Virus record (IMG/VR): IMGVR_UViG_3300017917_004390
Coordinates: 1-64,000 of that record
DNA length: 64,000 nt
Reading direction: 5' to 3' (one strand)
DNA from: a virus
The notes beneath the pieces were generated by a model. It did no database searches, had not been told where the DNA came from, and was given only the letters and a program-made list of their open reading frames with translations. Shown piece by piece: positions 2,600 to 59,108 of this stretch; position 1 is the first letter of the stretch; each line of letters opens with the position of its first letter. The position numbers and the translations under genes are program-made.

Positions 2600-5500
2600 T
2601 TATATATAGTTATTAATATTTATTTGATAATAAACTGAACCTACTCTTTTAAAAGTGATTGAGTCATTTGTACTACCATTAATAATAGCATCTAATCCAC
2701 CTTCTGTCTTTATTGTTGAACTATTTTTAAAAGTTACTGTATACGAACCATTAACGGTAAAAGTAATGTTTGGTTGATAAGTATATGTATTTGTTATTGT
2801 TGTGGCGGTCCTATTAGCTGATGATGTATCTAATAAAACTTCAGATGAAAAAAATTTATCAGAATCAGATAATGTTATTGTATCCGACACTAAATTTATT
2901 GTTGATTGTTTATCAGTATTTTTATTGAAAATACTGATACTATTCATACTCAAACTTTGATTTTCTATACTAAATGTAGAATCGTTTATATTTGAGTTAT
3001 AAACATTTATACTTGAAAACCCAATACTATCAAAAATAAAATTTGAAAGCTTAAAAAATGTATTCCCGTATAATCTCGCATCTGAACCAACATTTATAAT
3101 ATTTACTTGACCAGCTGTACTATGTATTATATTTTGATGAATATATTCTAAAGCAAAATTAAATGTATTTATATTATCAACACCAAAACTATGAACTTCA
3201 TTCATTTTTTCGTCTGACATATAATATATTGTATCATTAGTTAATGAATATTTAATTTTAAATAATTTATTTAAATAACCATTATTTGTTGTATAACTTT
3301 TAGGTAGTTCAGTACAATTGGCTAAAATATCACTTTCCGTATTAAGTGTAAATGTTGTTGTAACTCCATAATGTCTATTATTAAATATAATAATATTACC
3401 GGAACTATATGAATTACCAATTAATGGTGGTATTGCTGGTGAACTAAATGCTGCATCACTATAATCACCCACAGCATTATAATCAGCTAAAAATCCAAGT
3501 AAATAACAGTCGTATGATAATTCGTATGTTGATACCGCAAATGTTAAAATATCACCGTAAGTATTATTACCTGTATCACTTCTGTTTATAATTTTATACC
3601 ATTTACCAATTTTATATGTTGGTGTTTTTGAATTAAAAATATTTATAGCTTCTGATTGGTCTATTGTTTCATAATATGAAGTATCGGATGATATACCTAT
3701 TAAATTATCTTTATAAAAAATTGATGTACCATTATATCCTGATAAAGAATATAATTTCAGTTCTGTTGATGTTACAGATGATATTAATTTAACCCCATCA
3801 CCAACTGTTGTTGCGGTTGTAATACCACTAGAACCAATTACTGGTGCAGTTTGTGTTGTTGAACTAAATAATACTAAATTAGGTGCTGTCGAAGATGTAT
3901 AAATTAATAAATTAGGTGTTGTACTACTAAAAGTTTTAATACTTAAATCATGTGTTGTTGCACTATTAACAATACCTATACCACCACCGACTTGCGTTGT
4001 TGATGTTATACCACTAATATAAGTTCCTGTGATTGGTGATGAGGTTGAAGATGAAAAATAAATAACACCATTGTTTTCCCAAACACTAACGGAAGGTGTA
4101 CCAGAAAGTGTTTTCAATATTAAATTACTATCCGTAGCTGATGAAAATATACCTATACCATCACCAGTATTAATAGCACCTGTTATACCACTTAAACCAC
4201 CTGATGATGATAATAAATCTAAAGTACTACCACCTTTTCTAAAATATAAATTTGTACCATTATACCATAAGTCCCCATCAATAGGTGAACTTACATTTGT
4301 TCCAGCGGAAAAATTTATATGTGGTCTATTATTTTGCGATTGACCTATATCTAACCAAGAACCTCTTGTTGTTGATGATAATGTTAAACCACTACCCAAT
4401 ATTAATGTATTTCCAATAAAGGCTCTATCAGATTCAGCAAATATAGACCAAGGCCGATTTGTAAATGTTGTTTTACTATTACCACTGAAGAATGTATTAT
4501 TTAAAATATCTTTTGAGATGATACTATTATCTTTACCTGCAATATATATACCAGCAGCATTTCTAACTACAGGACCATTTAATGTTGATGATGATAAAAT
4601 GCAAACTTTATCAATATATAAATCAATTAAATTATCAATAGTATTTTGTACTAGTAATGAACTTACCGTCCTATAATAAGTATTAATTAAATCTCTATAA
4701 ACAGTGTTTACAGCATTTGATGTTAAATTAATATCTTTAAGATTACCTATAATATCCGAATTTTTGGTATTTTGGGTATCAAAACCTGTGATAGTATAAT
4801 TATCATAAGTACCTACAATTCTATGATTATTTGATGAAGGGGGTGTATTAGAAGCAGCTAAAAGTACTCTATATTTATTGAAATTTAAAATTAAATTATT
4901 ACTTTCAATTAATGGATTTAAAAAATTATATTCATTTTGTTTTAGAATGGTAAAATTATTACCACTTAATGAACCTAAAACTGGATTTTGTTGTGTTTCA
5001 TACATATACTCTTTAATATATGTTGCACCACTTATTTTTATTGAGGAAGCATTGTTTAATTGGTATAAAGGTTCAACTTTATTTGGTTGATATAAATTAT
5101 ATATATTAGACGCACCTATTGTGTCAAAATTATTATTAGAAATGTTTGTTCGACTACCAATTGTTATACCACTATAAAATTCTTTTTTACCATGTACAAT
5201 CTGATTATCTTGTGTCATTAAGAAATCAGCATTAGATTTAACATCTGGTATAGTATACACTCTATTAGACGTTGCTGAATGAGTACCTACTTTAACAAAT
5301 ATATTATCAACACTATCATGTACTTGTTCACCGGAATTTCTATATAAAGCTAAATTTCTAGTACCACCAGAATTCACTTCTACAGTACCTATAATATTTA
5401 TTAAACCTAAAGATGTTGAAATAGTATTTCTATTTGTTGCTGTTATAGTTCTGAATACTAATTCATTATTATTATAACCTGAATAAACTGGTACCCCACC

Positions 5501-7204
5501 ACCTAGAGATGTACCTGATGTTATAAAATTTGGAGATGATATTACTATAATATCACCTACTTGTGAAACAACAGTTCTGCCATTACCCGAAAAAGTCCTG
5601 AATTCAAAATTATCACTACTAACTTGTTTAAATACAGGTATAGCACCTCCAATATTTGTACCACTATAAGTTATTGATGGTCCACCGCCTGTAGATGCGC
5701 CACCTGATATAAGTAATGTACCACCTGATATTGATAACGAAACACTACCAAGACCTATAACACGTCTACTAACTATTTCTTTGTTTATTACACCTGTAAT
5801 AATATCAAAGCCACCAGTTAAACCTGTTGTTGTTGTACCAGTTATTCTAGTTGTTGAACTGATAAGAATATCGTTAACATTTTGTATCACATTGATATCA
5901 CCATCACCTCTTAAAGTTCTAAATTCAAATAAATCACCTATTCGTCTTTTAAATACAGAAGCAAAACCTCCTATATTAGTGCCTGATAATGCTAATGTAC
6001 TTATGTAAATAACACCATTTGATTCACTTATGTTAACACCTGAATTACCTGATAATGAAAATAATGAAATATTATTAGGTGTGCTACTACTAATCAATGA
6101 TTGACCGTTACCTACAGATGTGGCAGAATAATTAAAATCTGATGTATCTACATTAAACGTTAAAACATTATCTTGTTCACTTATATTAACATTACCACCA
6201 GATATATTTTTAACAAAAATAGTATTACCGCTAACATAAGATAATGAAATACCTGATGTAGCAGAACTTAAACTATCAAAAGTTTCTTTTGATGGTGTAT
6301 ATTTATTATTAATAAATTTTAAAACATTATTAGTTGTTGAACCTGTTAATTCAATCTCAACATTTTTAATAAACAACCTATTAAAAACATTTGTGTTACC
6401 TGAATAGTCAATAGAAAACGCATTTTTTCTATCAGAATTATTATTACCATTACCAACTAAAAAATAAGTATTTGTATTCGGAATATTAAATTGACCTACA
6501 ACAGTTTGACTATTAGCTGATGCTATTGTATCAAGACCTAATGTAGTACTATCTTGACCATATGCTATTGAATTTCTACCCGGTGCAAAAGAAAAAGGTC
6601 CAAAACCTCTTGAATTATAAACAGCTTGTCTTTGAATACCACCAGTTGAACCAGTTGTATATTCAAACACTTGTGTAGTTGAAGAATTACTAATAATTGT
6701 TGAACCAGTTGAACCACTAAAATAACCCGCTGGTATTAATAAAGTTGAAACTAATAATTGACCAGCTGATAATACAGGTACAGATGGTGAAGCCGCTGGT
6801 GAACCTTGTAATACTTGTACAGTTCCACCTGTAGTTATATAAAGCACATCAAACCTTGAATTAGTAGCATTACCGCTACTAACTAAAACATTACCACCTA
6901 AATATGGATATTTAACACCATTTATTTGATATAAACCATTTGCTATGTTATATTGAAGAGCATTTGTAGGTTCAACCGATACGTTCATACCAAATATAAT
7001 TTGGTCTAAACCTGAACCCGCTGGTTGAAATCTAACCTCAGTACCGTCATATATTAAAGCATAACCAACAACTGGATTTGATGTATTAATATTAATATTT
7101 TTAACGGCTATACCTTGCAAAAAAGATGTATATCCAGATAAAATAGCTGTTGTATCTGGATACTGGATTATTTGAGTACTGAAATTAGGTTTAGTATAAT
7201 ACAT
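2600..7204 (-). CDS. Large tail fibre/virion protein with repeated ~50-aa modules
   Basis: 1534 aa; multiple 'TNIGG..VF....FEFRTL.G...I.....I.IS' repeats, 'DGDLWYNG' motif, S/T/G-rich. Confidence 0.65.
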   Translation of the reverse strand: MYYTKPNFSTQIIQYPDTTAILSGYTSFLQGIAVKNININTSNPVVGYALIYDGTEVRFQPAGSGLDQIIFGMNVSVEPTNALQYNIANGLYQINGVKYPYLGGNVLVSSGNATNSRFDVLYITTGGTVQVLQGSPAASPSVPVLSAGQLLVSTLLIPAGYFSGSTGSTIISNSSTTQVFEYTTGSTGGIQRQAVYNSRGFGPFSFAPGRNSIAYGQDSTTLGLDTIASANSQTVVGQFNIPNTNTYFLVGNGNNNSDRKNAFSIDYSGNTNVFNRLFIKNVEIELTGSTTNNVLKFINNKYTPSKETFDSLSSATSGISLSYVSGNTIFVKNISGGNVNISEQDNVLTFNVDTSDFNYSATSVGNGQSLISSSTPNNISLFSLSGNSGVNISESNGVIYISTLALSGTNIGGFASVFKRRIGDLFEFRTLRGDGDINVIQNVNDILISSTTRITGTTTTGLTGGFDIITGVINKEIVSRRVIGLGSVSLSISGGTLLISGGASTGGGPSITYSGTNIGGAIPVFKQVSSDNFEFRTFSGNGRTVVSQVGDIIVISSPNFITSGTSLGGGVPVYSGYNNNELVFRTITATNRNTISTSLGLINIIGTVEVNSGGTRNLALYRNSGEQVHDSVDNIFVKVGTHSATSNRVYTIPDVKSNADFLMTQDNQIVHGKKEFYSGITIGSRTNISNNNFDTIGASNIYNLYQPNKVEPLYQLNNASSIKISGATYIKEYMYETQQNPVLGSLSGNNFTILKQNEYNFLNPLIESNNLILNFNKYRVLLAASNTPPSSNNHRIVGTYDNYTITGFDTQNTKNSDIIGNLKDINLTSNAVNTVYRDLINTYYRTVSSLLVQNTIDNLIDLYIDKVCILSSSTLNGPVVRNAAGIYIAGKDNSIISKDILNNTFFSGNSKTTFTNRPWSIFAESDRAFIGNTLILGSGLTLSSTTRGSWLDIGQSQNNRPHINFSAGTNVSSPIDGDLWYNGTNLYFRKGGSTLDLLSSSGGLSGITGAINTGDGIGIFSSATDSNLILKTLSGTPSVSVWENNGVIYFSSSTSSPITGTYISGITSTTQVGGGIGIVNSATTHDLSIKTFSSTTPNLLIYTSSTAPNLVLFSSTTQTAPVIGSSGITTATTVGDGVKLISSVTSTELKLYSLSGYNGTSIFYKDNLIGISSDTSYYETIDQSEAINIFNSKTPTYKIGKWYKIINRSDTGNNTYGDILTFAVSTYELSYDCYLLGFLADYNAVGDYSDAAFSSPAIPPLIGNSYSSGNIIIFNNRHYGVTTTFTLNTESDILANCTELPKSYTTNNGYLNKLFKIKYSLTNDTIYYMSDEKMNEVHSFGVDNINTFNFALEYIHQNIIHSTAGQVNIINVGSDARLYGNTFFKLSNFIFDSIGFSSINVYNSNINDSTFSIENQSLSMNSISIFNKNTDKQSTINLVSDTITLSDSDKFFSSEVLLDTSSANRTATTITNTYTYQPNITFTVNGSYTVTFKNSSTIKTEGGLDAIINGSTNDSITFKRVGSVYYQININNYI

Positions 7205-9591: not shown

Positions 9592-12159
9592 TTACTTAAA
9601 TGTTAATTTAGTATTATTATCTAAATCTTTTTCGGCTACTAAAAGAAAATCGGGTTCAATTAATTCACTATGAGCGTGTTCAATAATAATTACTTTATCA
9701 ATATACCGTCTAAGTTGTCTCATTAAACCAACAAATAAACCAGCATTTTTTTCTGAAAGTTTACCAAATAATTCATCTAATAACAATATGTTTGGTTTAG
9801 AATTACGATTTAACATTCTAAGTGCTAATCTAAGTGCTATACTACTAAACACTCTTTCCATACCTGAGCCTGATTTAACATCCATTAAAATATCTGGTGC
9901 ATATTTTTTAATCATCTTAAATTCTAAATCATCATTAAGATATACATCAAAATCAACGTCAATTAAATATTCACTTAAAACATTATTAATAGTAAAAAGT
10001 CGCTGTTTAAGTATTAAACTTGGAAGTCCTTCTCTATGTAGGATTTTTTCATAAAAATCACGTATTAATTCCTCATTTTGTTGTTTTTCAAACTTTTCAA
10101 TAGTTTCATTTTTTTGTTTAATACTTTGTTGTTCATTGACAATGTAAGTATTTTTTAATGATAATCTGCGCTCATTTTTACTATTTTTTTGTGTTAACAA
10201 CTCATTGATTCTGGCATCAATTTTTTGTAATTTAATATCTATTTTATCATTTTCTTCTTTATTTTGAAGATTTCTTTCATAATCAGTAATCCTTTTGTTT
10301 TCTAAATCTATTCTTAATTCAATATTTTCAATATCAGTTGGTTTATTTTCTAAATCTTTAATAAGAAGATTTTTCTCATTAATTTTTTCTTTTATATTAT
10401 CAAATTCATGAAGTTTATGATTGATAGTCTCAAAATCAAGTTGTTTTTTAATTATTTCAGCTTCAATAATAGAGATTTTCTCTTTGTTTTTTTCAATTTC
10501 ACTATTATATTCAGTAATTTTAGTTTGATATTGAGTAATTTGGTTATTTATCTTATCTAATTTATCTTTATAATTAAAATTAAATTTTAAACTACTGATT
10601 TCATGTTCTAATCCATTAATATTTAATCTAATATTACGAATTGTTTTTTCAATTTCTGAAATAGCATCTTTATTTTTAAGTTGTTTACAAGTTGGACATA
10701 CTTTACTATTTTCAAACTGAGCAATTTCTTTTTCTTTTATTTCAATTTGACTTTGAATGCGTTTTATTTCGGCTTCAAGCTCATTATCAAGAAATTTAAT
10801 ATTTCTTTCTTCTAATGAAATTAAACCATTAGTTTTAGAGATATCATTGAGTAATTGTTCATTTTCTAATTGTATTTTTTTGATTTCATGTTTTTTATTT
10901 GACATCAAATCTTTAAAAGTGTTAAATTCATTTAAAACTAAATCATATGATTCTTTATTAAATACATACTTTTCTAACCCCGCAATTTTTTCTTTTAGAG
11001 TTTCAATTTCATGTTCTTTATTTTTCTTTTTTTCTATTAAATTTAATATATTCGTTTTAATATCATTAACATTAGTATTTAAAAGAACTAAATCTACATC
11101 TTTTTTAGTGGATAATACTTCATCTCTATAAGAATTACCCTTGCTTAACGAATCATCTAAATTTTTAATCTCAGACTCTATTGTTTGAATTTCTTTTTCA
11201 TATTCAATAATATTTAATTTATGTGTTTCAATTTGATTTTGATAATCAAGTACATCAATTTTTAATTGGGTTTCCTTCTTATATTCATCTTTTTTCCACT
11301 TTTTAAATCTTTCTAATTTCTTCTCAAACATATCTAAACCAGAATCTTTTAATATAGCAGTTAAAAATTCAGCCCTATCCATAGATAATATATCGTTAAG
11401 ATTATCAGCATTAATTAATGATAATCTAAGAAAATCTTTAAATTCACCTACAATATTCTTAAGATATTCTTGTGTTTTATTTTTATCTTGGTCAGTTTCT
11501 TGATTGAGGATATTACCTAGTTCATCAACTAAATCATATTTAACTGTGGTTGAACATGATGTGATGGATGTTTTTTTTCTATCCCATTTTCTTTCAGTCC
11601 TTCTGGTAATACAATATTGTTTACCTTCAACTGAAATAAAAATCTTAACTTGGCAATAATCTAAATTCCTATTAAAATTGATGAATTTATTATCTCTATT
11701 GGATTCTCTATCAATAGTATCTAATGTTCTACCTTGTAGTCCATAAGTTATAGAATTTAAAATATTTGAGTTATGTGAAATAATTTCATCATTAACAAAA
11801 AATTCTGGATTACCTTCTACTTGAATATCATATAAATCAATTTTTTCGTTATTAACATATACAGTTTTAGGTGTTTTAAGACCATTCCTAGTTAAAACTG
11901 GTGTATTGTTCTTTAGTACATTCAACGCACTAGTATATACCTTGGTACCATCGCCACTATCAGTTTTAAAATAATGATTTTCACTTGAAGTGACTGAGTT
12001 ATCATCAAATTCAATTGTTATGGTTTCACTATCTTTAGCTGTTATATCAACTGATTTAATTTTTTGATAACCATTAGGAGTTTCAATTTCAATATCTAAG
12101 TCAGGATTATTTTTAAAAAGTTCATATAAACTTTTAAGGTCAATATTTTGTTCTGTCAT
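9592..12159 (-). CDS. sbcC: Split-intein C-fragment (aa 1-130) fused to the C-terminal part of an SbcC/Rad50 (gp46-like) ATPase
   Basis: aa 1-130 carry intein blocks B (SSENHYF), F (DLYDIQVEG) and G (ISHN|S); then coiled coil, CPTC zinc hook, SGSGME signature, LLLDE Walker B and IIEH; no complete Walker A in this ORF. Confidence 0.92.
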   Translation of the reverse strand: MTEQNIDLKSLYELFKNNPDLDIEIETPNGYQKIKSVDITAKDSETITIEFDDNSVTSSENHYFKTDSGDGTKVYTSALNVLKNNTPVLTRNGLKTPKTVYVNNEKIDLYDIQVEGNPEFFVNDEIISHNSNILNSITYGLQGRTLDTIDRESNRDNKFINFNRNLDYCQVKIFISVEGKQYCITRRTERKWDRKKTSITSCSTTVKYDLVDELGNILNQETDQDKNKTQEYLKNIVGEFKDFLRLSLINADNLNDILSMDRAEFLTAILKDSGLDMFEKKLERFKKWKKDEYKKETQLKIDVLDYQNQIETHKLNIIEYEKEIQTIESEIKNLDDSLSKGNSYRDEVLSTKKDVDLVLLNTNVNDIKTNILNLIEKKKNKEHEIETLKEKIAGLEKYVFNKESYDLVLNEFNTFKDLMSNKKHEIKKIQLENEQLLNDISKTNGLISLEERNIKFLDNELEAEIKRIQSQIEIKEKEIAQFENSKVCPTCKQLKNKDAISEIEKTIRNIRLNINGLEHEISSLKFNFNYKDKLDKINNQITQYQTKITEYNSEIEKNKEKISIIEAEIIKKQLDFETINHKLHEFDNIKEKINEKNLLIKDLENKPTDIENIELRIDLENKRITDYERNLQNKEENDKIDIKLQKIDARINELLTQKNSKNERRLSLKNTYIVNEQQSIKQKNETIEKFEKQQNEELIRDFYEKILHREGLPSLILKQRLFTINNVLSEYLIDVDFDVYLNDDLEFKMIKKYAPDILMDVKSGSGMERVFSSIALRLALRMLNRNSKPNILLLDELFGKLSEKNAGLFVGLMRQLRRYIDKVIIIEHAHSELIEPDFLLVAEKDLDNNTKLTFK
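11770..12159 (-). other. Intein C-fragment (IntC, 130 aa, no homing endonuclease)
   Basis: Ends in His-Asn followed by Ser+1 (11767-11769); lacks block A. Confidence 0.92.
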
Positions 12160-34332: not shown

Positions 34333-34965
34333 TTATTTTTTTAGATTTATAAAAAATGGTATATTTTTTTCTAATATAAAACGGTCCATGTTAGGAAATA
34401 AAGAAATGAAAAAATCTCTAACTTCACCCTTTTTATCTATAAGACAGTTAAAATTGTTATTAAGATATGTCAAAAATTCTAATTTAATATCTTCAAATAT
34501 TTGATAATTTCTAATATCTATTATATAAATTAAGTCCGTATAAATATATACGGTATTGTTATAATAATAAATATTTTTTACTGTTTCTTGATTAAAGAAG
34601 TCAATAACTTTGTCAATATTATCAAACTCAGGGGTAAAAAATGGGTCAATTATTTTAAATTTATTATCAACTATCAATAAATCAGGTATAACATTAAGAA
34701 ACTCTTTAAATCCATTAATAAAATAATTTAAAAATTCTTTAGGGTTAAAACACCAATATGTTTTATTATTAATTTTATAATTTTCAATTTCTATATTAGG
34801 ATAAATAGATTTAGCATATTCATAACCAACTATTAATGTTGGAATTTCATCATTAATATAATTAGAATGAAAATGTAAATATTTAAGCAATGAACTATAT
34901 TCATAAAAAGTATTTAAATAATTATCATCTTTTGATAAGCCGCAAACATTAGCTATTTTATACAT
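34333..34965 (-). CDS. Hypothetical protein
   Basis: 210 aa, coupled to the upstream gene. Confidence 0.6.
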   Translation of the reverse strand: MYKIANVCGLSKDDNYLNTFYEYSSLLKYLHFHSNYINDEIPTLIVGYEYAKSIYPNIEIENYKINNKTYWCFNPKEFLNYFINGFKEFLNVIPDLLIVDNKFKIIDPFFTPEFDNIDKVIDFFNQETVKNIYYYNNTVYIYTDLIYIIDIRNYQIFEDIKLEFLTYLNNNFNCLIDKKGEVRDFFISLFPNMDRFILEKNIPFFINLKK

Positions 34966-37900
34966 TATAATGAATTAATACGTTGATAATCATAAACTCC
35001 GTTTCTAATATACCCATATTTTTTCATAAATTTCTCAACTTGCATTATAACCCCTGATAATATTTCATCATAATTTGGTGCGGCTGCATATCCATCTAAT
35101 TTCATCATTTCAGCTATTTTATAATATAAATCAGGGTCAGAATATTGAGGTTCACCTTTATTTTGTAAATTATTATTTACTAATATATTAATATTTCTAT
35201 AGATGTTTGATTTAGGGTTTAATAATAAGTCACTTAATGCTTTCACACCTTCATACCTAGTTTTATAAGCTCTGAACTTGGCAATATAAACTACTATATA
35301 ATTATTAGTAGTACCTTTCATTTTCTGTGTTTGACCTATTTCTTTTTGTTTTAAATCAAAAATTACCGGTTCAGTTATTATATTACCGTTTTCAAAATAT
35401 TTTGAATCTGTAGTGATTCGGTTATTAACTGTCTTTACTAGTTCACCTTTATGATTATAAAAACCAAGTATATTATTTACTCCGGTATAATTAATATCGT
35501 TTGTTGATAAACTATCTTTATTTGATTTATATATATCACTATTTTCTTTAACTTTTGAGGCTTTTACTATATTAAAATAGATATTATATTTATCATCTGT
35601 TAATAATTTTTCATCACCGCTTTCAAGTATCATAGTAGCTAATGTATTTATAGCTGGAAATCCTGTTTGTTTTTGTACATCGAAAGCATCTTTAAGGTAT
35701 TTATTAATAACATTTTCTCTTCTATTACCACCAGTGTTTAAATCTTTATCTCTATCAGTTTTTATATTAGGTTTTCTAACAAAAATAGTACTATTAAAGG
35801 TAGAAAGAATATCCTCATTAATTTTATTAATAGTATTAGTATATTTATTATTTTTATTGTATAACATATAAGGTTGGTCAACAATAGGTAATGTGTTTCT
35901 ACTAATTCTATAAGCTTTAAATGATGTTTTTAACTGATTTGACGAATCAATTGAATGTGTTGTTGAATATAACATATAAAATCCATTGAAAAGCGGGTTA
36001 TTTGTTAAAACACAGTATTGTGTTGGCTGTATAGTCATACAGCCATGTGGTATTGTTGAAGAAATACTATAACTTCTTTTTTTATACAATGTTAATAAAG
36101 ATTGACCTTTTGGTAAACTAAAGCTATTACTCTGGTTATTAATAATACTAGATGTAATTCTTAAAGATTCATCAGTATTTTTATAATCTTCAGTACTAAA
36201 TCTAAAATCATTAAAAAATGCTTGATTTTGTATGCCAGTATAATTAATAATAAAACCTCTAACATTAGTATTTAGTAAATCAGAAGGTATATTATCAATT
36301 GTGACTCCATCATCAGGTATTAAATCATTTGTTTTAAGTGATTTGGACAGTCCTCCCACATAAATACATAAAAATTGTGGTTGAGTGTTTTGAACTTTAA
36401 TTTCATTTGATAACCGAAATCCATCTGACCATTTTTTAGGGTCATTAAATAAACCTAAATTTTGAAAAGGATAAAACCAAAAATTATTCTTGGTCAATAT
36501 ATTTGAAATAACTGAAAGTACTGACATTTTACTATCAGTTGAATCATCAATCATACTACTAAGGTCTAATATGCACTTTTTAGATATATCATTAAAGTTT
36601 CTATCAACAAAATTAAAAGTATCAATAGTTTTAGTATTATTACCATTAACCCTTGCATAATAATTCTCATATATCATCTGAAAACTATTATATAATTCAA
36701 GTTTTAAATCATTATCTAACACATTGGACTGAAATTCTTTACTTAATTCAGCTATTCTTTTATTATCTGATGTTATTTGAGAATTTAATTCCGTTAATAA
36801 ACTAAAAAAGTACTTATTAAATAAAGTATTACCCAATAAATTATTAGGTACAAATTTGTTTGTATCATCAACATAATTAATATTAGGTTCTGAATCACCA
36901 AAAACTGATGTATCATTAACCACAATATAATATTTACCCTCAAACCTGTTGGTTTCAGTATTAAAAACACCGAATATATCATTAATAATATCAGTTTCTT
37001 TTTTACTCCTATTTTTATTAAAGGCTATTAAAGTATCATTATTTATATTATAAGAAGATAAAAAATCAGAATAAACTTTAATACAGTTTTTGAAAAAATT
37101 ACTGCTCTTATAAAATATTAAACTTGAAGATAAAAATATATTTGATTTGATAGTGAAATATACATTATTATCTAATTGCTCAGATAAAAATCTATAACCT
37201 AAATTTAATATTAAACCTAATGGAACTTCTAAAATTGAATTTTTACTAAATCTAAAACTATTATACTTACCAAATAATAATATTAAATCTTTGAATTTAA
37301 TATTATTATCAATATTAATATCTTTTTCATTATAAATTTGAGTAATATCAGAACTTTCAACAATAAAATCACTTACTGTATCTACAGTAAGGTTATCTTT
37401 AACAAAAAGTATATTTTCCTTAGTGTAAACTTGTGATTTATTTTTAATAAATGTATTTAAAAGACTATTATCGTTAGTAGTTGTATTATCAACTAAATCA
37501 ATATTAATCTCATCATCTGAAAATAATAATAAACTATTAACATCGGATGAATAATTAGTGAAAGTTGTATTACCTATATTAATATTTGACGTGCCAAATT
37601 TTGTTGTTTGTGAATAAACTTCGGTTGTTGATGGGTTATTAAGTAAATAATTACCAACATTTGATTCACTACGAATATCTCTGTATAAATTACTAAAAAA
37701 ATTCTTAGTTTGTTTATTATCTTTAATTGATGTTAATATATTAATAGCTTCATCTTTAGATTTTTGTAATAAAAAATCATTATCAAACTCAATATGATTA
37801 GTTCCTTTATTAATAAAAACAATATATCTTAGTATTATTAATTTTAATAGTTCATTAACATTATTAGTATTACTAAGATAAGGATTTATTAATTCGGGTT

Positions 37901-39452
37901 CATTAAAAATATTATAGTTTTTGTAGTATTCATAAGGATTTAATGGGATATAATTATTAGGATTATTAATATTTGGATTGTTAAGTGTATCTTCATAGAG
38001 TTTTTCATTAATTTGTTCATTAACCATTGATTGAACAAATTTTTCAATAAATTGAACCTCAGGCCAAGTTTTAAAAGCTGGTATTGAACCAGGATAAACT
38101 AAATTATTATTGTTAACAACAGTGGGAAATCCTAACTTACCAATAATATTAGGTACATTTCTATTCTGATTAGAACCTAAATCACCAGAAGTTTTAATTT
38201 CATTAATCAAATAATCATAATCATTCATTAAAACTTTAAAAACATTATAGGCTGTTTGTTTTTCATTATCACCTAAAAATTTTCTAGTTACATTTGTAAT
38301 TTTAGTTTCTAATTCTTGATTAAAAGTTTTACTTTTATTTAATACCTCATTTCTAAGATTTTCGATATAAGAAAATAAATCTCTATATTCAAGAGTAATT
38401 TTATTATAAGATGTATTATATATAATTTGAATTAAATCCCTAGGTGCATCATTTTGTTCTAATGAATTTCTAAATGATTGTTGTATAGCATCAAAATAAG
38501 GTTTATATTCATCTTTATTTGTAGGATATTTTAGATTAACCAAATTAAAAATTAACTGTCTACCTTTATTTGAGTTTACAACATTATTAGTTATATCATT
38601 TATTATATTTTCATTTGGATTCAATATTTGAGTTAAATCCGATTTAATAGATTCTTTACTAATATATGAGTTTAATAAATCTGTTAAATTGTTATAAATA
38701 CTAGTTTTAGATTCTATTTCATTCCTTTTTCTTTTTTCTTCATCACTTTCTTCAATTCTCTTAATATTGTTATAAAGAGATTTTAATCTATAAAGTAAAT
38801 CGTAGACACTAACAACCTCACCATCTGATGTACTTTTAAGTCCTTTGTAAAAATGAACAGCCTTTAGATAATTGAAAAGTATATCAGTCATACTACTAAA
38901 TTTATCGCCAACAAATTTAGCTTTAATAATATGATTTCCACTATTTGAATCCACTTCAACTGTGGTGTTACCTTGAATCATTAATCTAAATTCAACAAGC
39001 GGTCCGTAAGCACCTTTAATTCTTAATTTAAAAATTGGAGGTGGTAAATCAAAAAGTGAATTAAATTTACTATTTGAATCTTGAATACTATTACCTTTTA
39101 CATCAATAAAAGTTATATTAACTATTGGTATTTTATTTGCATCAATATTTATATTGATATCTTGAATACCAAAACCTTCATATGTATCATTAGTTGTATC
39201 TGGTCCAACAATATATTCAGTATATCTAGTTGAATAATATTTATCATCAGAATTAATAAAACCTTGTAAATTAATAGTTTCTGGTTTAGAATTAGAAACA
39301 TCAATAGTATTATCTGAACCAATATTTATAATTGATTTACTTCTTTTATAAATTAATAATTCTACAAAAGGTTTAATATCTTCAATTTTATTGATAAGAT
39401 TATAGATATCAGTATTATCAATATCATTAGGATTTATTAAATAGTTATTCAT
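34965..39452 (-). CDS. Large baseplate hub/tail protein with C-terminal GH73 (FlgJ-like) peptidoglycan hydrolase
   Basis: 1495 aa; C-terminal 'LATMILESG', 'YFNI', 'FRAY', 'GYAAAPNY' GH73 motifs; near the tape measure gene. Confidence 0.7.
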   Translation of the reverse strand: MNNYLINPNDIDNTDIYNLINKIEDIKPFVELLIYKRSKSIINIGSDNTIDVSNSKPETINLQGFINSDDKYYSTRYTEYIVGPDTTNDTYEGFGIQDININIDANKIPIVNITFIDVKGNSIQDSNSKFNSLFDLPPPIFKLRIKGAYGPLVEFRLMIQGNTTVEVDSNSGNHIIKAKFVGDKFSSMTDILFNYLKAVHFYKGLKSTSDGEVVSVYDLLYRLKSLYNNIKRIEESDEEKRKRNEIESKTSIYNNLTDLLNSYISKESIKSDLTQILNPNENIINDITNNVVNSNKGRQLIFNLVNLKYPTNKDEYKPYFDAIQQSFRNSLEQNDAPRDLIQIIYNTSYNKITLEYRDLFSYIENLRNEVLNKSKTFNQELETKITNVTRKFLGDNEKQTAYNVFKVLMNDYDYLINEIKTSGDLGSNQNRNVPNIIGKLGFPTVVNNNNLVYPGSIPAFKTWPEVQFIEKFVQSMVNEQINEKLYEDTLNNPNINNPNNYIPLNPYEYYKNYNIFNEPELINPYLSNTNNVNELLKLIILRYIVFINKGTNHIEFDNDFLLQKSKDEAINILTSIKDNKQTKNFFSNLYRDIRSESNVGNYLLNNPSTTEVYSQTTKFGTSNINIGNTTFTNYSSDVNSLLLFSDDEINIDLVDNTTTNDNSLLNTFIKNKSQVYTKENILFVKDNLTVDTVSDFIVESSDITQIYNEKDINIDNNIKFKDLILLFGKYNSFRFSKNSILEVPLGLILNLGYRFLSEQLDNNVYFTIKSNIFLSSSLIFYKSSNFFKNCIKVYSDFLSSYNINNDTLIAFNKNRSKKETDIINDIFGVFNTETNRFEGKYYIVVNDTSVFGDSEPNINYVDDTNKFVPNNLLGNTLFNKYFFSLLTELNSQITSDNKRIAELSKEFQSNVLDNDLKLELYNSFQMIYENYYARVNGNNTKTIDTFNFVDRNFNDISKKCILDLSSMIDDSTDSKMSVLSVISNILTKNNFWFYPFQNLGLFNDPKKWSDGFRLSNEIKVQNTQPQFLCIYVGGLSKSLKTNDLIPDDGVTIDNIPSDLLNTNVRGFIINYTGIQNQAFFNDFRFSTEDYKNTDESLRITSSIINNQSNSFSLPKGQSLLTLYKKRSYSISSTIPHGCMTIQPTQYCVLTNNPLFNGFYMLYSTTHSIDSSNQLKTSFKAYRISRNTLPIVDQPYMLYNKNNKYTNTINKINEDILSTFNSTIFVRKPNIKTDRDKDLNTGGNRRENVINKYLKDAFDVQKQTGFPAINTLATMILESGDEKLLTDDKYNIYFNIVKASKVKENSDIYKSNKDSLSTNDINYTGVNNILGFYNHKGELVKTVNNRITTDSKYFENGNIITEPVIFDLKQKEIGQTQKMKGTTNNYIVVYIAKFRAYKTRYEGVKALSDLLLNPKSNIYRNINILVNNNLQNKGEPQYSDPDLYYKIAEMMKLDGYAAAPNYDEILSGVIMQVEKFMKKYGYIRNGVYDYQRINSL

Positions 39453-54971: not shown

Positions 54972-56531
54972 ATGGTTATAAAAACTGAAACTAAATATTC
55001 TACCGTTTTAGACATATTAAAGACTTCAATTAAACAGGGAGTATCTTATAAAGATATTCTAAATGAAAGAGAACTAAGCCCTTCTTATATAAATGATTAT
55101 ATATATGATATTAAAAGAGGTAAAGTTAAATATTTAAATGAAGATGAAAAAAATGAAGTAGTTAAATTATTCGAGTCTCAAATTCCAATTCCAAAAACTT
55201 CTAATAATAAAAGTTTAGATTTAAATAATGAAGTTGATTTTGAAAAAAGAAGTAAATGCTGGCAAGAAAGAGATGAAGATGGTAAGATACTTCGTTATCA
55301 TTATGAAATTCATGTCCGTGATGAAAAACCACTTGAAGGTTATTTAACTAGACAAGAGTATGATACTATAGTTGAGAACTATCCATTCTTAACTCGGAAT
55401 ACTGTTTCACAAATGTTTCCAACTTTAACATTTGTGGATTTTAAAAGAATTATTAGATGTTTTAATATTACAAAAGATGTTGTTTTTTCACCTCACACAT
55501 TAGAAGAAAATCCACCAGAAAAAATTGCTGAATTTCATCTAAAAGCTAAAGCTAAATCAGCTTATAGAAAAATAACTGAAGAAAGAGGTGCTTTTAATGA
55601 GAAAGTTATTAAAGATTTAGTGAGAGAAAATCTTGATTTAAAAGATATTAGAACATTTATTGATGATACAGTAAATAAATATATTAAAACTGGTTCATCA
55701 GTTAAATTAACTAGAAAGCATCCAGAAATTAAAACTGGTGATATTGGTTATTTATTTTATAGTGATATTCACTATGGTAAAAAATATGAAAGCCCGATTT
55801 TTGGTAGGGGATGTGATAAAGATATATTACATGATAGAATGATTCAAATTGCTGATGAAACAATCAAATATGTAGAATTTAATCAAATTAAAAAATTAAA
55901 AAGTTTTTTTGCTGGTGATATTGTTGAAAGTATTTTAGAAGAAGGTATGCATCCCGGACATTTTAAAGAAATGGACCTAAGGGGTGATGAACAAATTATG
56001 TTTGCTATTGATTCACAAATCAATTTTATACAAAGAATACTTGATAATACAACAATACCTCTTGAATTTACATTTATTGGTGGTAATCACGATAGAATAG
56101 GTGATGATAGACAAAAAGATAAAGCTAGAACAGCATCTTTATTAATATTCAAATTAATTAAAAAACATTTTCAAGATAACGAAAGAGTTGTTATTAATGT
56201 AGGTACAAATACACTAACAAAAGATAATGAAAATGGCTTATGCGTATTAATGTTTCATGGTGATAATAGTCTAATTAAAAAACAACCACATGAATTAGTT
56301 AATCTACATGGGATTGGTACAACAGGATATCATTTAGTAGTGTCAGGCCATTTCCATAGTGGAGATATTAAACAAAAAACTGGTACTAATTATATGAGTA
56401 TATCTTTACCATCGGTTTGTAGTACAGATAATTTTGTATTAAATGAATTAGGTAACAATGACCTACCCGGATTTGTTATAGGAAAGAAACAAAACTCAGG
56501 TTTTAGTTTTAATTATAACATCCTTCATTAA
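54972..56531 (+). CDS. Calcineurin-like metallophosphoesterase with N-terminal extension
   Basis: SDIHYG, GDIVE, GNHDR, FHGD and GHFH motifs all present. Confidence 0.85.
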   Translation: MVIKTETKYSTVLDILKTSIKQGVSYKDILNERELSPSYINDYIYDIKRGKVKYLNEDEKNEVVKLFESQIPIPKTSNNKSLDLNNEVDFEKRSKCWQERDEDGKILRYHYEIHVRDEKPLEGYLTRQEYDTIVENYPFLTRNTVSQMFPTLTFVDFKRIIRCFNITKDVVFSPHTLEENPPEKIAEFHLKAKAKSAYRKITEERGAFNEKVIKDLVRENLDLKDIRTFIDDTVNKYIKTGSSVKLTRKHPEIKTGDIGYLFYSDIHYGKKYESPIFGRGCDKDILHDRMIQIADETIKYVEFNQIKKLKSFFAGDIVESILEEGMHPGHFKEMDLRGDEQIMFAIDSQINFIQRILDNTTIPLEFTFIGGNHDRIGDDRQKDKARTASLLIFKLIKKHFQDNERVVINVGTNTLTKDNENGLCVLMFHGDNSLIKKQPHELVNLHGIGTTGYHLVVSGHFHSGDIKQKTGTNYMSISLPSVCSTDNFVLNELGNNDLPGFVIGKKQNSGFSFNYNILH

Positions 56532-56534
56532 TAT

Positions 56535-56981
56535 ATGAATTATACACAAGAACAGAAAGACCTATTACTTGATAAATTATTTGATGGAGTTGTTTGTCTC
56601 AATATTTATCGTAGAATTGATATTATACATAAAAATAATAAAATTTCATGGTACAAACCAAAATATAATTTTTTTTGGTTAAATTACCATCAAATATGGC
56701 AATTTTTTGAAAACAAAAATGGTTCTAATTACCAAGAAATCAAAGACTTAACTGAGGGTATCCTGAAAGACCTTATAAAACAAAAGGAACTCACAACTGC
56801 ACCCGACCGGACCTTTTGGCATATAGACCTGAAAGACCTTATAAAACAAAAGGAACTCACAACAACCGAACCATTTGTACACTCCGCTCAACTCCTGAAA
56901 GACCTTATAAAACAAAAGGAACTCACAACGCTTCCTGAATTACTTTTTGATTTTCTTAACCTGAAATACCTTACAATATGA
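56535..56981 (+). CDS. Repeat-terminated small protein, paralog 1 (reads through 3 repeats and 3 spacers)
   Basis: MNYTQEQKDLLLDKLFDGV core; LKDLIKQKELT occurs three times, separated by spacer-encoded peptides. Confidence 0.8.
   Translation: MNYTQEQKDLLLDKLFDGVVCLNIYRRIDIIHKNNKISWYKPKYNFFWLNYHQIWQFFENKNGSNYQEIKDLTEGILKDLIKQKELTTAPDRTFWHIDLKDLIKQKELTTTEPFVHSAQLLKDLIKQKELTTLPELLFDFLNLKYLTI
56762..56976. CRISPR. CRISPR mini-array inside paralog 1: three identical 36-bp repeats, three 30-bp spacers and a truncated terminal repeat
   Basis: CCTGAAAGACCTTATAAAACAAAAGGAACTCACAAC at 56762, 56828 and 56894; unique spacers 56798-56827, 56864-56893, 56930-56959; partial repeat 56960-56976. Confidence 0.88.
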
Positions 56982-57265
56982 ATTATACCCAAGAACAGAA
57001 ACAATTATTACTCGATAATCTCTTTGATGGGGTTGTTTATTTTAATATTTTTGAAGATATCAATATTATTCATAGAAATCGTTTTTTTTCAATATATCAA
57101 CTAAAATATAACAAGTTTTGGTTAAGTCAACCTAACATTTGGAGATTTTTTGAAAATGAAAAAAGAAATAACTTCTATCAAATCATTGAATTAACACAAA
57201 ATATCCTGAAAGACCTTACAAAACAAAAAAATATTAGAACTGAAAACTTACGACTGAAAATTTAG
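56978..57265 (+). CDS. Repeat-terminated small protein, paralog 2
   Basis: Same core; degenerate repeat at 57205-57240 encodes LKDLTKQKNIR. Confidence 0.8.
   Translation: MNYTQEQKQLLLDNLFDGVVYFNIFEDINIIHRNRFFSIYQLKYNKFWLSQPNIWRFFENEKRNNFYQIIELTQNILKDLTKQKNIRTENLRLKI
57205..57240. repeat. Degenerate copy of the 36-bp CRISPR-like repeat
   Basis: CCTGAAAGACCTTACAAAACAAAAAAATATTAGAAC. Confidence 0.7.
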
Positions 57266-57295
57266 AACAATAGTTCTAATACTCATAATTAATAT

Positions 57296-57649
57296 ATGAC
57301 CTACACACAAGAACAAAAAGACCTCTTACTTGATAAACTCTTTGATGGAGTAATTTGTCTGGATATCTATAATAATATTGAAATTATACATAAAAATAGT
57401 AATATATCATATTATATATTTGGAAGTAATACTTTTAGATTAAGTTGGAGTAATATTTGGAAATTTTTTGAGAATGAAAAAAATGATAATCAACAAGAAA
57501 TTGAAGAATTAACATCTAATATCTTAATAGACCTTACAAAACGAGAGGGAATTAAAACACATCAACGCTATACTTCAATAGAATGGAGCGAATATCGACT
57601 TAAAAATCCGAATATTACAATTCAAGAAATAATTTTTCGTTATTTTTAA
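57296..57649 (+). CDS. Repeat-terminated small protein, paralog 3
   Basis: Same core; degenerate repeat at 57523-57558. Confidence 0.8.
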   Translation: MTYTQEQKDLLLDKLFDGVICLDIYNNIEIIHKNSNISYYIFGSNTFRLSWSNIWKFFENEKNDNQQEIEELTSNILIDLTKREGIKTHQRYTSIEWSEYRLKNPNITIQEIIFRYF

Positions 57650-57707
57650 GACCATGTTTTTCGAAAAGAAACGAATAATATCTATTACCCTAATAGACCT
57701 TACAAAA
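57523..57707. repeat. Degenerate repeat (57523-57558) and partial repeat (57689-57707)
   Basis: CTTAATAGACCTTACAAAACGAGAGGGAATTAAAAC; CCTAATAGACCTTACAAAA just before the next ATG. Confidence 0.6.
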
Positions 57708-57716
57708 TAATATTAT

Positions 57717-58040
57717 ATGAAATACACACAAGAACAAAAAGACCTACTACTTGACCGTCTCTTTGATGGAGTTGTTTTTTTTAATATATATGATACAATT
57801 CGTATTACACATATAAATAATAAAAAATCATGGTACAACCCAAAAACTAGTCTATTTTGGTTAAGCTATAGTAATATTTGGCATTTTTTTGAGAATGAAA
57901 ATATATATAATTTTCAAGAAATCAAATACTTAATTGAGCCTATCCTGAGAGACACTACAGAACGAAAGGAACTCACAACTAACGCTTGGATGGATATTGC
58001 TCGATGCTGTCTAAAAAGAAAGGAACTTACAAAACAATAA
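57717..58040 (+). CDS. Repeat-terminated small protein, paralog 4
   Basis: Same core; repeat encodes LRDTTERKELT. Confidence 0.8.
   Translation: MKYTQEQKDLLLDRLFDGVVFFNIYDTIRITHINNKKSWYNPKTSLFWLSYSNIWHFFENENIYNFQEIKYLIEPILRDTTERKELTTNAWMDIARCCLKRKELTKQ
57944..58037. CRISPR. Repeat-spacer-degenerate repeat unit in paralog 4
   Basis: CCTGAGAGACACTACAGAACGAAAGGAACTCACAAC (57944-57979), 30-bp spacer TAACGCTTGGATGGATATTGCTCGATGCTG (57980-58009), scrambled repeat remnant. Confidence 0.7.
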
Positions 58041-58043
58041 AAT

Positions 58044-58325
58044 ATGACTTACACACAAGAACAAAAAGAACTACTACTTGACAAACTCTTTGATGGAGTT
58101 GTTTGTATGGATATCTACTATGATATTGATATTATTCATAGAAGTTATGGGTTATCATACTACAACCCAAAAACTAATGAATTTGTGTTAAGCTATAATT
58201 ATATTTGGAAGTTTTTTGAGAATGAAAATAGAGATAATTACTATGAAATCGAAGAATTAATATCTAGTATCCTGAGAGACACTACAGAACGAAAGGAACT
58301 TATAACAAATTATTGGCGGGGCTGA
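58044..58325 (+). CDS. Repeat-terminated small protein, paralog 5
   Basis: Same core; the stop codon lies inside the spacer. Confidence 0.8.
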   Translation: MTYTQEQKELLLDKLFDGVVCMDIYYDIDIIHRSYGLSYYNPKTNEFVLSYNYIWKFFENENRDNYYEIEELISSILRDTTERKELITNYWRG

Positions 58326-58372
58326 AATCGAAGACCACTGAGAGACCTTACAAAACAAAAGGAACTCACAAC
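58271..58372. CRISPR. Repeat-spacer-repeat unit in and after paralog 5
   Basis: 36-bp repeats at 58271-58306 and 58337-58372 flank an exactly 30-bp spacer AAATTATTGGCGGGGCTGAAATCGAAGACC. Confidence 0.82.
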
Positions 58373-58415: not shown

Positions 58416-59108
58416 ATGTTTAAAACAGTTGAATTAGATAAATATGTAACGATTGATATTGAGTGCGTTACTGGATATAAAAATATATATGAATTAGAAA
58501 GAATTAAACCTAATTTGTATAAAATTTTTCAAAAAAGGTTTGAAAAAGATATAAATGAGGTTTTAAAAAATGTTGATTCGGTGCTTGAAGCTGAAGAAAA
58601 AGTATATAAAGAAAAAGCTGTTTTTATGGCTGAATTTTCAAAAATAATTTGTATTTGTGTTGCTGGTTATTTAAATGGGGAAATACAAACTAAATCATTT
58701 TTAGGTAATGAAAAAGATATTATTAGCAAATTTTATACTTTTATTGCTGGTAAACCTAGAATTATTTGTGGACATAACATAGTTAAATTTGATATACCTT
58801 TTATTAATAAAAGAGCTTATCTTTATAATATTCAGATACCTTCTATACTTCAGATTCATGATAAAAAACCTTGGGAATTATCTGCTAGTATAAGAGATAC
58901 ACAAACTTTATGGGCATTTGGTGGAATGAATAATATATCACTTGAACTTCTATGTGAATTTTTAGGTATTGAAACATCAAAAGATGATATTGATGGTTCC
59001 CAAGTCGATTCAATATACTATATATATAATGATATAGATAGAATTGTACAATATTGTACAAAAGACGTAACTTCAAATTTATTGGTAATCAAAAGATTAT
59101 GCAATTAG
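58416..59108 (+). CDS. DEDD 3'-5' exonuclease (PolB/DnaQ-like exonuclease domain)
   Basis: ExoI 'IDIEC', ExoII 'GHNIVKFDIPFI', ExoIII 'YCTKDV'. Confidence 0.9.
   Translation: MFKTVELDKYVTIDIECVTGYKNIYELERIKPNLYKIFQKRFEKDINEVLKNVDSVLEAEEKVYKEKAVFMAEFSKIICICVAGYLNGEIQTKSFLGNEKDIISKFYTFIAGKPRIICGHNIVKFDIPFINKRAYLYNIQIPSILQIHDKKPWELSASIRDTQTLWAFGGMNNISLELLCEFLGIETSKDDIDGSQVDSIYYIYNDIDRIVQYCTKDVTSNLLVIKRLCN

Follow-up and report, generated by a model that had tools for sequence, protein, structure and literature searches.

Small phage genes that run into a cas-less CRISPR-type array resembling those of type VI-B

Can a CRISPR array begin inside a protein-coding gene, and what would such an array do for a phage? 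This question is raised by a locus in the IMG/VR virus record IMGVR_UViG_3300017917_004390, which comprises 93,192 bp with a completeness of approximately 30% according to CheckV, and of which the first 64 kb (hereafter, the window) were analyzed. The + strand of the window contains five paralogous open reading frames (ORFs) in head-to-tail order (56535-58325), and each of them is terminated by a 36-nucleotide (nt) repeat (Table 1). The paralogs could be aligned with the first one (unit 1) over 87 amino acids (aa) without gaps, showing 59-66% identity, and the similarity between the units ends where the repeat ends. The repeat is present in eight copies in the window, and no match was obtained in 100 shuffles of the sequence. 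The three copies of unit 1 are identical and have a period of 66 nt, units 4 and 5 contain a common variant of the embedded repeat, and the embedded repeats of units 2 and 3 have decayed. The terminal repeats that follow units 1 and 4 are both damaged.

The segments between the repeats, hereafter called spacers, are each exactly 30 nt long. These results agree with a sequence-only reading made earlier of this DNA, which had described genes that each run into the repeat, 30-nt unique segments, three identical repeats in unit 1, a complete repeat-spacer-repeat in unit 5 and a loss of paralog similarity at the repeat end. Its inventory of five units was correct but missed the 3′ fragment of a sixth. 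The five units arose through tandem duplication of the gene together with its array, probably by unequal recombination at the repeats. The amplification of a gene-plus-guide unit, also proposed in that reading, applies to the phage lineage of the window, where the unit is amplified in tandem, and not to other lineages, where it is single or dispersed.

Since 66 nt correspond to 22 codons, the ORF of unit 1 is read through all three of its spacers. The window by itself cannot decide whether such a layout is a protein repeat or a CRISPR array; the DNA of the relatives decides.

Array structure in the relatives

Distant relatives were collected by a profile search over 1.84 billion representative proteins, and the DNA of twelve further loci was taken from IMG/VR contigs and one contig of a Bacteroidia metagenome-assembled genome (MAG). 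Close homologs were present only on three Joint Genome Institute (JGI) contigs (87,252, 67,223 and 46,565 nt; proteins P0004-P0026), with 10-11 paralogs on two of them, and a search for related loci with the close family gave none in IMG/VR or in the JGI metagenome contigs. The distant relatives, which are 25-40% identical, have the same architecture with repeat sequences specific to each lineage; one example reads LEQHLKLKGVTT, 10 residues and LEQHLKLKGVTT again. In all twelve loci, the last 12 codons of the gene are the first repeat copy, and the maximal identical block was 36 nt (37 nt in one case). Thus, homologs generally end in a 36-nt repeat that is followed by unique units of 29-30 nt, which was the outcome that the sequence-only reading had anticipated for a genuine association.

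The arrays of the relatives (L022, L037 and L044-L052) consist of two to six identical repeats, and the gene-distal repeat is degenerate. Their approximately 31 spacers are 29 or 30 nt long, and each of them matches only itself or the same spacer of a sister phage. Spacers of 29 nt, which break the reading frame, account for 9 of approximately 36; in L048, L049 and L051 this happens at the first spacer, and the arrays still continue for three to six repeats. The ORF of L037 ends precisely where spacer 1 meets repeat 2, and repeat 2 (338-373) is identical to repeat 1 at 36/36 positions. At L052 (1633-1668), the repeat is read in another frame, giving VVSTHNIEVKHT in place of the usual LEEHFKLKGVTT-like motif, with its GTTG...ACACC ends kept. 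The retention of repeats past stop codons and frame-breaking spacers, together with the frame shift of L052, indicates that selection acts on the nucleotide sequence and that the pattern is not an accident.

Comparison between related loci shows how the arrays change. L047 and L051 have the same repeat, two gene-distal spacers and a decayed terminal repeat in common, whereas their gene-proximal spacers differ (one versus three). Likewise, the gene-distal spacers of L044 and L048 are common and the gene-proximal ones are different, and the paralogs L022 and L027 of one phage differ by exactly one 66-bp spacer-plus-repeat unit. This polarised gain was observed in L047/L051 and L044/L048, that is, outside the closest relatives of the window, and it indicates that the gene occupies the position of the leader. 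Identical repeats, unique spacers of 29-30 nt, polarised gain and a degenerate distal end are those of a CRISPR array with constraint at the nucleotide level. We are therefore confident that the repeats and spacers constitute a true array of the CRISPR type rather than a repeat within a protein.

The composition of the window spacers was also distinctive. Although the phage has a G+C content of 25.6%, s1, s2, s4 and s5 contain 14-16 G+C and rank in the top 0.4-1.8% of its 30-mers. The codons of these four spacers are GC-rich at the third position, indicating that the composition is foreign beyond what the choice of amino acids would produce. Between s4 and s5, 13/30 positions were in common by hand count, which is a weak similarity. 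The tail of unit 5, LITNYWRG followed by the stop, is identical in the homolog P0011, even though the two proteins are 62% identical and the repeat-encoded residues upstream differ; the start of an old spacer has thus been better conserved than the repeat.

As for translation of the spacers, the first 30-nt spacer was free of stop codons in 9 of 15 DNA loci and in approximately 17 of 26 protein tails, the chance value being approximately 52-62%. This rate is close to chance and indicates no general selection for translatable arrays. An exception is P0027, a single ORF of 760 aa with five fused units and approximately nine variable segments of 10 residues, in which no stop is found; units are fused similarly in P0031 (346 aa) and P0036 (281 aa). 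In these fused-unit lineages, the arrays must stay open in frame. In the close homologs, the tails that follow the ...KELTT motif all differ from one another, and in composition they resemble random DNA with approximately 48% G+C and not the phage proteome. In the tails of 26 family proteins and the window spacers, Trp accounted for 5.8% against an expected 1.6% (P = 7 × 10-5), Tyr and Phe were also in excess, and the excess was specific to the frame. Trp is located at position 3 in four tails (NYW, NAW, RYW and GRW). This aromatic excess may reflect common ancestry of the tails or selection at the peptide level.

One relative deserves a comment on its origin. L037 (G062:C91) is a three-repeat array on a 633-bp contig that was binned into the Bacteroidia MAG. 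Because the MAG contains no other copy of the L037 repeat, the contig probably represents phage DNA that was grouped with the genome of its host during binning.

Resemblance to type VI-B and searches for its partners

Type VI-B arrays are characterized by a 36-nt repeat with GUUG/CAAC ends and a poly-U loop, a 30-nt spacer and a 66-nt CRISPR RNA (crRNA) in which the spacer is 5′ of the repeat (10.1101/092577). The II-C and VI-B arrays of Flavobacterium columnare both have 36-bp repeats with GTTGT at the leader-distal end, and new spacers enter the VI-B array in trans via Cas1-Cas2 of the II-C system (PMC8092290). The window and its relatives show the same geometry, with a 36-nt repeat, spacers of 29-30 nt and a unit of 66 nt, and the gene-distal end of the phage repeats is the complement of GTTGT. 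The Bacteroidota VI-B/II-C geometry and polarity recognized in the sequence-only reading are thereby upheld. Polarised gain, the predicted transcription from the leader side and the lack of adjacent cas1/cas2 genes are further likenesses to the VI-B arrays of Bacteroidota.

We next compared the repeats, in gene-sense orientation, with the direct repeat of PspCas13b alone (10.1101/2023.03.10.532141). The family repeats matched it at 22-26 of 36 positions (P ≤ 0.002), and for L022, L044 and L048 none of 2000 shuffles scored as high. The repeats of the relatives have GUUG or GGUG at one end and CAAC or CACC at the other, which is a partial fit, and positions T3, G4, G25, A32, C33, A34 and C36 are invariant in the family, with the terminal pairing partly kept. 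A scan against Rfam gave no CRISPR-DR or other credible match. Because the fit of the repeat is incomplete, we use the term VI-B-style and do not class the repeat as proven VI-B; the array is probably related to type VI-B.

The differences from host VI-B arrays are as follows. The array described here is part of a phage genome, with no cas13b detected in the record. Its 'leader' is a translated gene whose last 12 residues are encoded by the first repeat. In addition, the GUUG/CAAC pairing of the phage repeats is incomplete (CCUG in the window), and the poly-U loop and the leader-repeat hairpin are absent.

Two further features are in accordance with an affinity to the VI-B arrays of Bacteroidota, namely, the family member in the Bacteroidia MAG and the lack of a Shine-Dalgarno signal in the phage. 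A Shine-Dalgarno-like 4-mer was found upstream of 3 of 82 ORFs in the window, which is the background level, and the region upstream of the start codons is enriched in A and depleted of G, as in Bacteroidota. Absence of the Shine-Dalgarno sequence is typical of Bacteroidota and their phages.

No cas gene was detected. Cas1 (PF01867) was absent from records G000, G001 and G002, and no Cas family of Pfam, PADLOC or NCBIfam was matched by the large unannotated ORFs of the present record (G000) or by those of its relative G409 (212 kb, 81% complete), in which the largest ORF encodes 861 aa. The cas-less character noted in the sequence-only reading therefore holds for the sequence at hand, with no Cas match in the records scanned. 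Neither a further repeat copy nor a reverse-strand anti-repeat was present in the 93-kb record, and for this reason an anti-repeat resembling trans-activating crRNA was discarded.

The sources of the spacers were also searched for. None was found among the INPHARED phages, where the sole match falls on the repeat, in five related phage records or in the available genomes of the phages themselves; exact 24-mers of s1, s2 and an L022 spacer had no match in IMG/VR, and only chance-level matches were obtained in 301 Bacteroidia and 401 Flavobacteriaceae genomes. One L051 spacer (1831-1860) showed an 18/19 match on the opposite strand at G406:35355-35373 and G405:28924-28942, which belong to its own and a sister phage (E = 0.005-0.012). 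This match may be a chance event in AT-rich DNA or a partial regulatory target.

Possible roles of the array and of the protein

The reading that we favor, to which we would give an even chance of being right, is that a cas-less VI-B-style array is filled by the machinery of the host and that its transcripts serve as decoy or hijacking crRNAs for host Cas13b, this function being inferred. According to this scheme, the host adaptation machinery would recognize the gene-repeat junction during infection and insert spacers there, and type II-C Cas1-Cas2 is a candidate integrase, given that it fills VI-B arrays in trans in Flavobacterium. The mRNA of the gene would carry the repeat and spacers in the sense orientation for Cas13b crRNAs (spacer 5′, repeat 3′). 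Guides made by the phage would then occupy host Cas13b, among them an 'extraneous' one that consists of the last 30 nt of the gene and repeat 1. These guides lack a target in the phage. Their most likely benefit would be to titrate Cas13b from the anti-phage crRNAs of the host, in the manner of an RNA anti-CRISPR (Racr). The repeat junctions on replicating phage DNA might also be a sink for spacer integration, and the five tandem copies would raise the dose.

The extraneous crRNA has a counterpart in host VI-B loci, where a leader-repeat hairpin hides the first repeat and an extraneous crRNA competes for Cas13b; overexpression of this crRNA increased plaque counts approximately 1000-fold (PMC13187072). 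The phage loci would yield the same crRNA form, with 30 leader-derived nt joined to the first repeat. Unlike the host loci, which suppress it with the hairpin, the phage loci have a coding 'leader' and lack such pairing: in none of 16 phage loci was a leader-repeat hairpin found, the 40 nt upstream pairing with the first repeat to no greater extent than shuffled sequence (all P ≥ 0.2). With no hairpin over the first repeat, the extraneous crRNA should form. The polarised gain, the sense orientation and the lack of a leader-repeat hairpin fit two of the three mechanisms offered by the sequence-only reading, that is, a crRNA mimic that hijacks host Cas proteins and a decoy site for integration, with their functions remaining inferred.

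Virus-borne repeats without cas genes are known as mini-arrays and Racrs, and they are presumed to act via the Cas proteins of the host (PMC6858448; PMC10651486; PMC11656645). For other CRISPR types, titration of Cas proteins by phage repeat RNAs is established, and candidate Racrs have been reported to be encoded adjacent to anti-CRISPR (acr) genes (PMC10651486). A similar association is seen here, as the repeat is contiguous with the gene for a small conserved protein. However, the mini-arrays and Racrs known so far do not code for protein, and their repeats match a known host repeat perfectly or with at least 90% identity, whereas the first repeat of the window is coding. The phage arrays described here also contain up to five spacers, show turnover, lie within an ORF and, in the phage of the window, are amplified in tandem. 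The Racr survey found representatives of every CRISPR type except type VI, and predicted ORFs were masked before the search (PMC10651486), so that a layout embedded in a gene could not have been seen there. In the literature that we searched, no description of arrays starting inside a gene was found, and the known viral mini-arrays and solitary repeats are non-coding and match the host (PMC11656645).

The decoy function on Cas13b, taken by itself, falls somewhat short of an even chance and is put forward tentatively, and a number of results weigh against the reading that contains it. When the five paralogs are compared, conservation of the embedded repeat does not exceed that of the remainder of the gene, at either the residues or the synonymous sites, and units 2 and 3 have kept the protein while the repeat decayed. 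Within the family, the window repeat bears the least likeness to VI-B: CCUG takes the place of GUUG at its start, and its center is A-rich with no poly-U loop. It matches the PspCas13b repeat at 19/36 positions (P = 0.03 in the forward orientation), the reverse complement scores better, and no stable fold was predicted on either strand. A host array with the 3′ 21-mer of the repeat was found neither in IMG/VR, nor in 185,579 species (one genome each), nor in the JGI metagenome contigs; these scans used a single pattern, matched exactly and only slightly degenerate, and gave only single chance matches. BLAST searches of 301 Bacteroidia genomes gave no host array with the repeat either. A model built only on the sequences of 13 repeats found just the phage contig in 151 Bacteroidia genomes, which says little because its own members scored approximately 21 bits and there was no positive control. 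The phage records surveyed for cas genes were 15-81% complete, and a cas gene may lie elsewhere in these genomes. Finally, a pure decoy does not need diverse spacers.

A first rival explanation is an offensive array, in which the spacers would turn host Cas13b (or Cas9) on phage competitors, on other mobile elements or on transcripts of the host, for example those of defense genes. The mini-arrays of Sulfolobus viruses act as offensive guides. In favor of this explanation, the spacers are real, diverse and turning over, no spacer matches the available genome of its own phage, as avoidance of self-targeting predicts, and viral mini-arrays mostly target related viruses according to a review (PMC11656645). 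Nevertheless, we consider it unlikely, as no protospacer was found for any spacer tested in the phage, IMG/VR, Bacteroidia and Flavobacteriaceae searches, and the collateral RNA damage caused by Cas13b would hurt the phage as well (10.1101/092577).

Alternatively, the 3′ end of the gene may simply resemble a leader-repeat junction, so that ectopic integration by host Cas1-Cas2 leaves neutral scars without function. The free decay of the repeat in units 2 and 3, its evolution as coding sequence within the window and the near-chance frequency of stop-free first spacers are all consistent with this explanation. However, the overlap of gene and repeat has been kept across relatives of 25-40% identity, each with a repeat specific to its lineage; moreover, untranslated downstream repeats remain identical, and the ends of the repeat are preserved at L052 in spite of the different reading frame. 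A functionless by-product is thus quite unlikely in our estimation.

A third explanation places the function in the peptide. As 36 + 30 = 66 nt keeps the frame, each captured spacer would rewrite a 10-residue cassette at the C-terminus, and the tails would matter as peptides. The reading of unit 1 through three spacers, the absence of stops over the five units and some nine spacers of P0027, the similar fusions in P0031 and P0036 and the frame-specific aromatic excess favor it. On the other hand, one-quarter of the spacers (9 of approximately 36) are of 29 nt, the arrays of L048, L049 and L051 continue after a frame-breaking first spacer, stops occur in first spacers at roughly the chance rate, and repeats are unchanged after stops (L037, and 58337 in the window). 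The aromatic excess may also reflect, in part, common ancestry of the tails at positions 1-3. Diversification of the protein tail is for these reasons distinctly improbable.

An ordinary tandem protein repeat, or a multi-core precursor of the type of ribosomally synthesized and post-translationally modified peptides (RiPPs), unrelated to CRISPR, is suggested by the layout of an approximately 76-aa 'leader' and 12-aa motifs flanking hypervariable 10-aa segments, as in cyanobactin and prochlorosin precursors with their leader and repeated cores, but it was dropped as hardly credible because relatives have frame-breaking spacers with some periods of 65 nt, stops inside arrays, nucleotide-identical repeats past stop codons and polarised gain of unrelated 29-30-nt inserts, the window spacers are of foreign composition with GC-rich third positions, and no maturation enzyme was matched by Pfam, PADLOC or NCBIfam among the large ORFs scanned.

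The protein joined to the array is an alpha/beta domain of approximately 90 aa. In the AlphaFold model (predicted local distance difference test score, pLDDT, 85), a helix is followed by four strands and two helices, and the tail and the final part of the last helix are encoded by the repeat. No sequence match was found in Pfam, PHROG or PDB, and none of the fold matches in PDB or BFVD was convincing, the best being an uncharacterized phage protein by Foldseek (E = 0.03) and a Z of 4.0 by VIA-align; in the ESM Atlas, the only matches were to unnamed viral clusters, below 0.9. The protein has been retained in units 2 and 3 despite the decay of the repeat, and at L052 the repeat has been retained in another frame, indicating that protein and repeat are separable, overlapping elements. 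The protein may be an anti-CRISPR or an accessory factor whose function is separable from the array. That protein and array form one functional module, either as a CRISPR-associated or anti-CRISPR factor using guides from its own mRNA or through spacer capture that rewrites the C-terminal 10-residue cassette, appears quite doubtful to us.

The omega-RNA of TnpB and IscB overlaps the 3′ end of their own ORF, and by analogy, the sequence-only reading had proposed that each protein binds a guide cut from its own mRNA. The two cases are alike in that the scaffold of a guide RNA lies within the 3′ end of a protein gene, which is a resemblance of layout only. In contrast to TnpB and IscB, the phage protein is small, with no RuvC/HNH features, no fold match and no sign of RNA binding. 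Given these features and the decay of the repeat in units 2 and 3, which have kept the protein, that mechanism finds no support.

The family thus presents phage genes with a Cas13b-style array whose start lies within coding sequence and whose acquisition of spacers continues. Should the array act on Cas13b, it would represent a natural, RNA-based means of countering type VI-B immunity. The family makes both type VI counter-defense and the capture of spacers into phage DNA directly testable. If the favored reading of a host-filled decoy array holds, the adaptation machinery of the host writes into phage genomes; the spacers would record DNA present in infected cells and could serve to identify the hosts of uncultured jumbo phages. 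A module of protein and array, if real, would be an undescribed use of CRISPR adaptation. The small protein is a candidate Cas13b anti-CRISPR, which would be of practical interest for the control of Cas13 tools.

Features of the window

The coordinates of the units, repeats and spacers and of the flanking genes are listed in Table 1.

Table 1. Repeat-terminated genes, repeats, spacers and adjacent genes in the window
Feature	Position	Strand	Description
SbcD-like exonuclease gene	54972-56531		5′ neighbor of the paralog cluster
Unit 1 ORF	56535-56981	+	148 aa; domain 56535-56761; in frame through three repeats and three spacers; TGA overlaps ATG of unit 2
Unit 1 repeat 1	56762-56797	+	Gene-embedded; encodes (I)LKDLIKQKELTT
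Spacer s1	56798-56827	+	30 nt, 16 G+C
Unit 1 repeat 2	56828-56863	+	Identical to repeat 1
Spacer s2	56864-56893	+	30 nt, 14 G+C
Unit 1 repeat 3	56894-56929	+	Identical to repeat 1
Spacer s3	56930-56959	+	30 nt, 8 G+C; phage-like composition
Unit 1 terminal repeat stump	56960-56977	+	Degenerate, first 18 nt; abuts ATG of unit 2
Unit 2 ORF	56978-57265	+	95 aa; decayed repeat 57205-57240 (81%); no spacer or second repeat after it
Unit 3 ORF	57296-57649	+	117 aa; decayed embedded repeat 57523-57558 (73%)
Sixth-unit fragment	57663-57707	+	Last ~26 nt of gene body and 5′ half of repeat, fused to the start region of unit 4
Unit 4 ORF	57717-58040	+	107 aa; embedded repeat variant 57944-57979
Spacer s4	57980-58009	+	30 nt, 14 G+C
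Unit 4 terminal repeat remnant	58010-58035	+	Internal 12-nt in-frame deletion
Unit 5 ORF	58044-58325	+	93 aa; embedded repeat variant 58271-58306; TGA stop within spacer s5
Spacer s5	58307-58336	+	30 nt, 14 G+C; first five codons and stop (NYWRG, stop) equal the tail of homolog P0011 on another contig
Unit 5 repeat 2	58337-58372	+	3′ of the stop, untranslated; 35/36 versus the earlier degenerate consensus, 33/36 versus the unit 1 repeat
PolB-type 3′-5′ exonuclease gene	58416-59108		3′ neighbor of the paralog cluster

The genes neighboring the cluster encode the two exonucleases and an amidase. Coding is dense under the standard code, and alternative genetic codes were discarded because code 11 already gives this density; no tRNA gene was found within the 64-kb window. 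Among the large ORFs elsewhere in the window, that at 2600-7204 (- strand, 1533 aa) had no match in Pfam, PADLOC or NCBIfam, and that at 34965-39452 (- strand, 1494 aa) had only a weak C-terminal match to glucosaminidase, so that its product may be a virion-associated lysin or a tail protein. The ORF at 9592-12159 (- strand) is SbcC/Rad50-like, with matches to AAA_23 and a Walker B motif.

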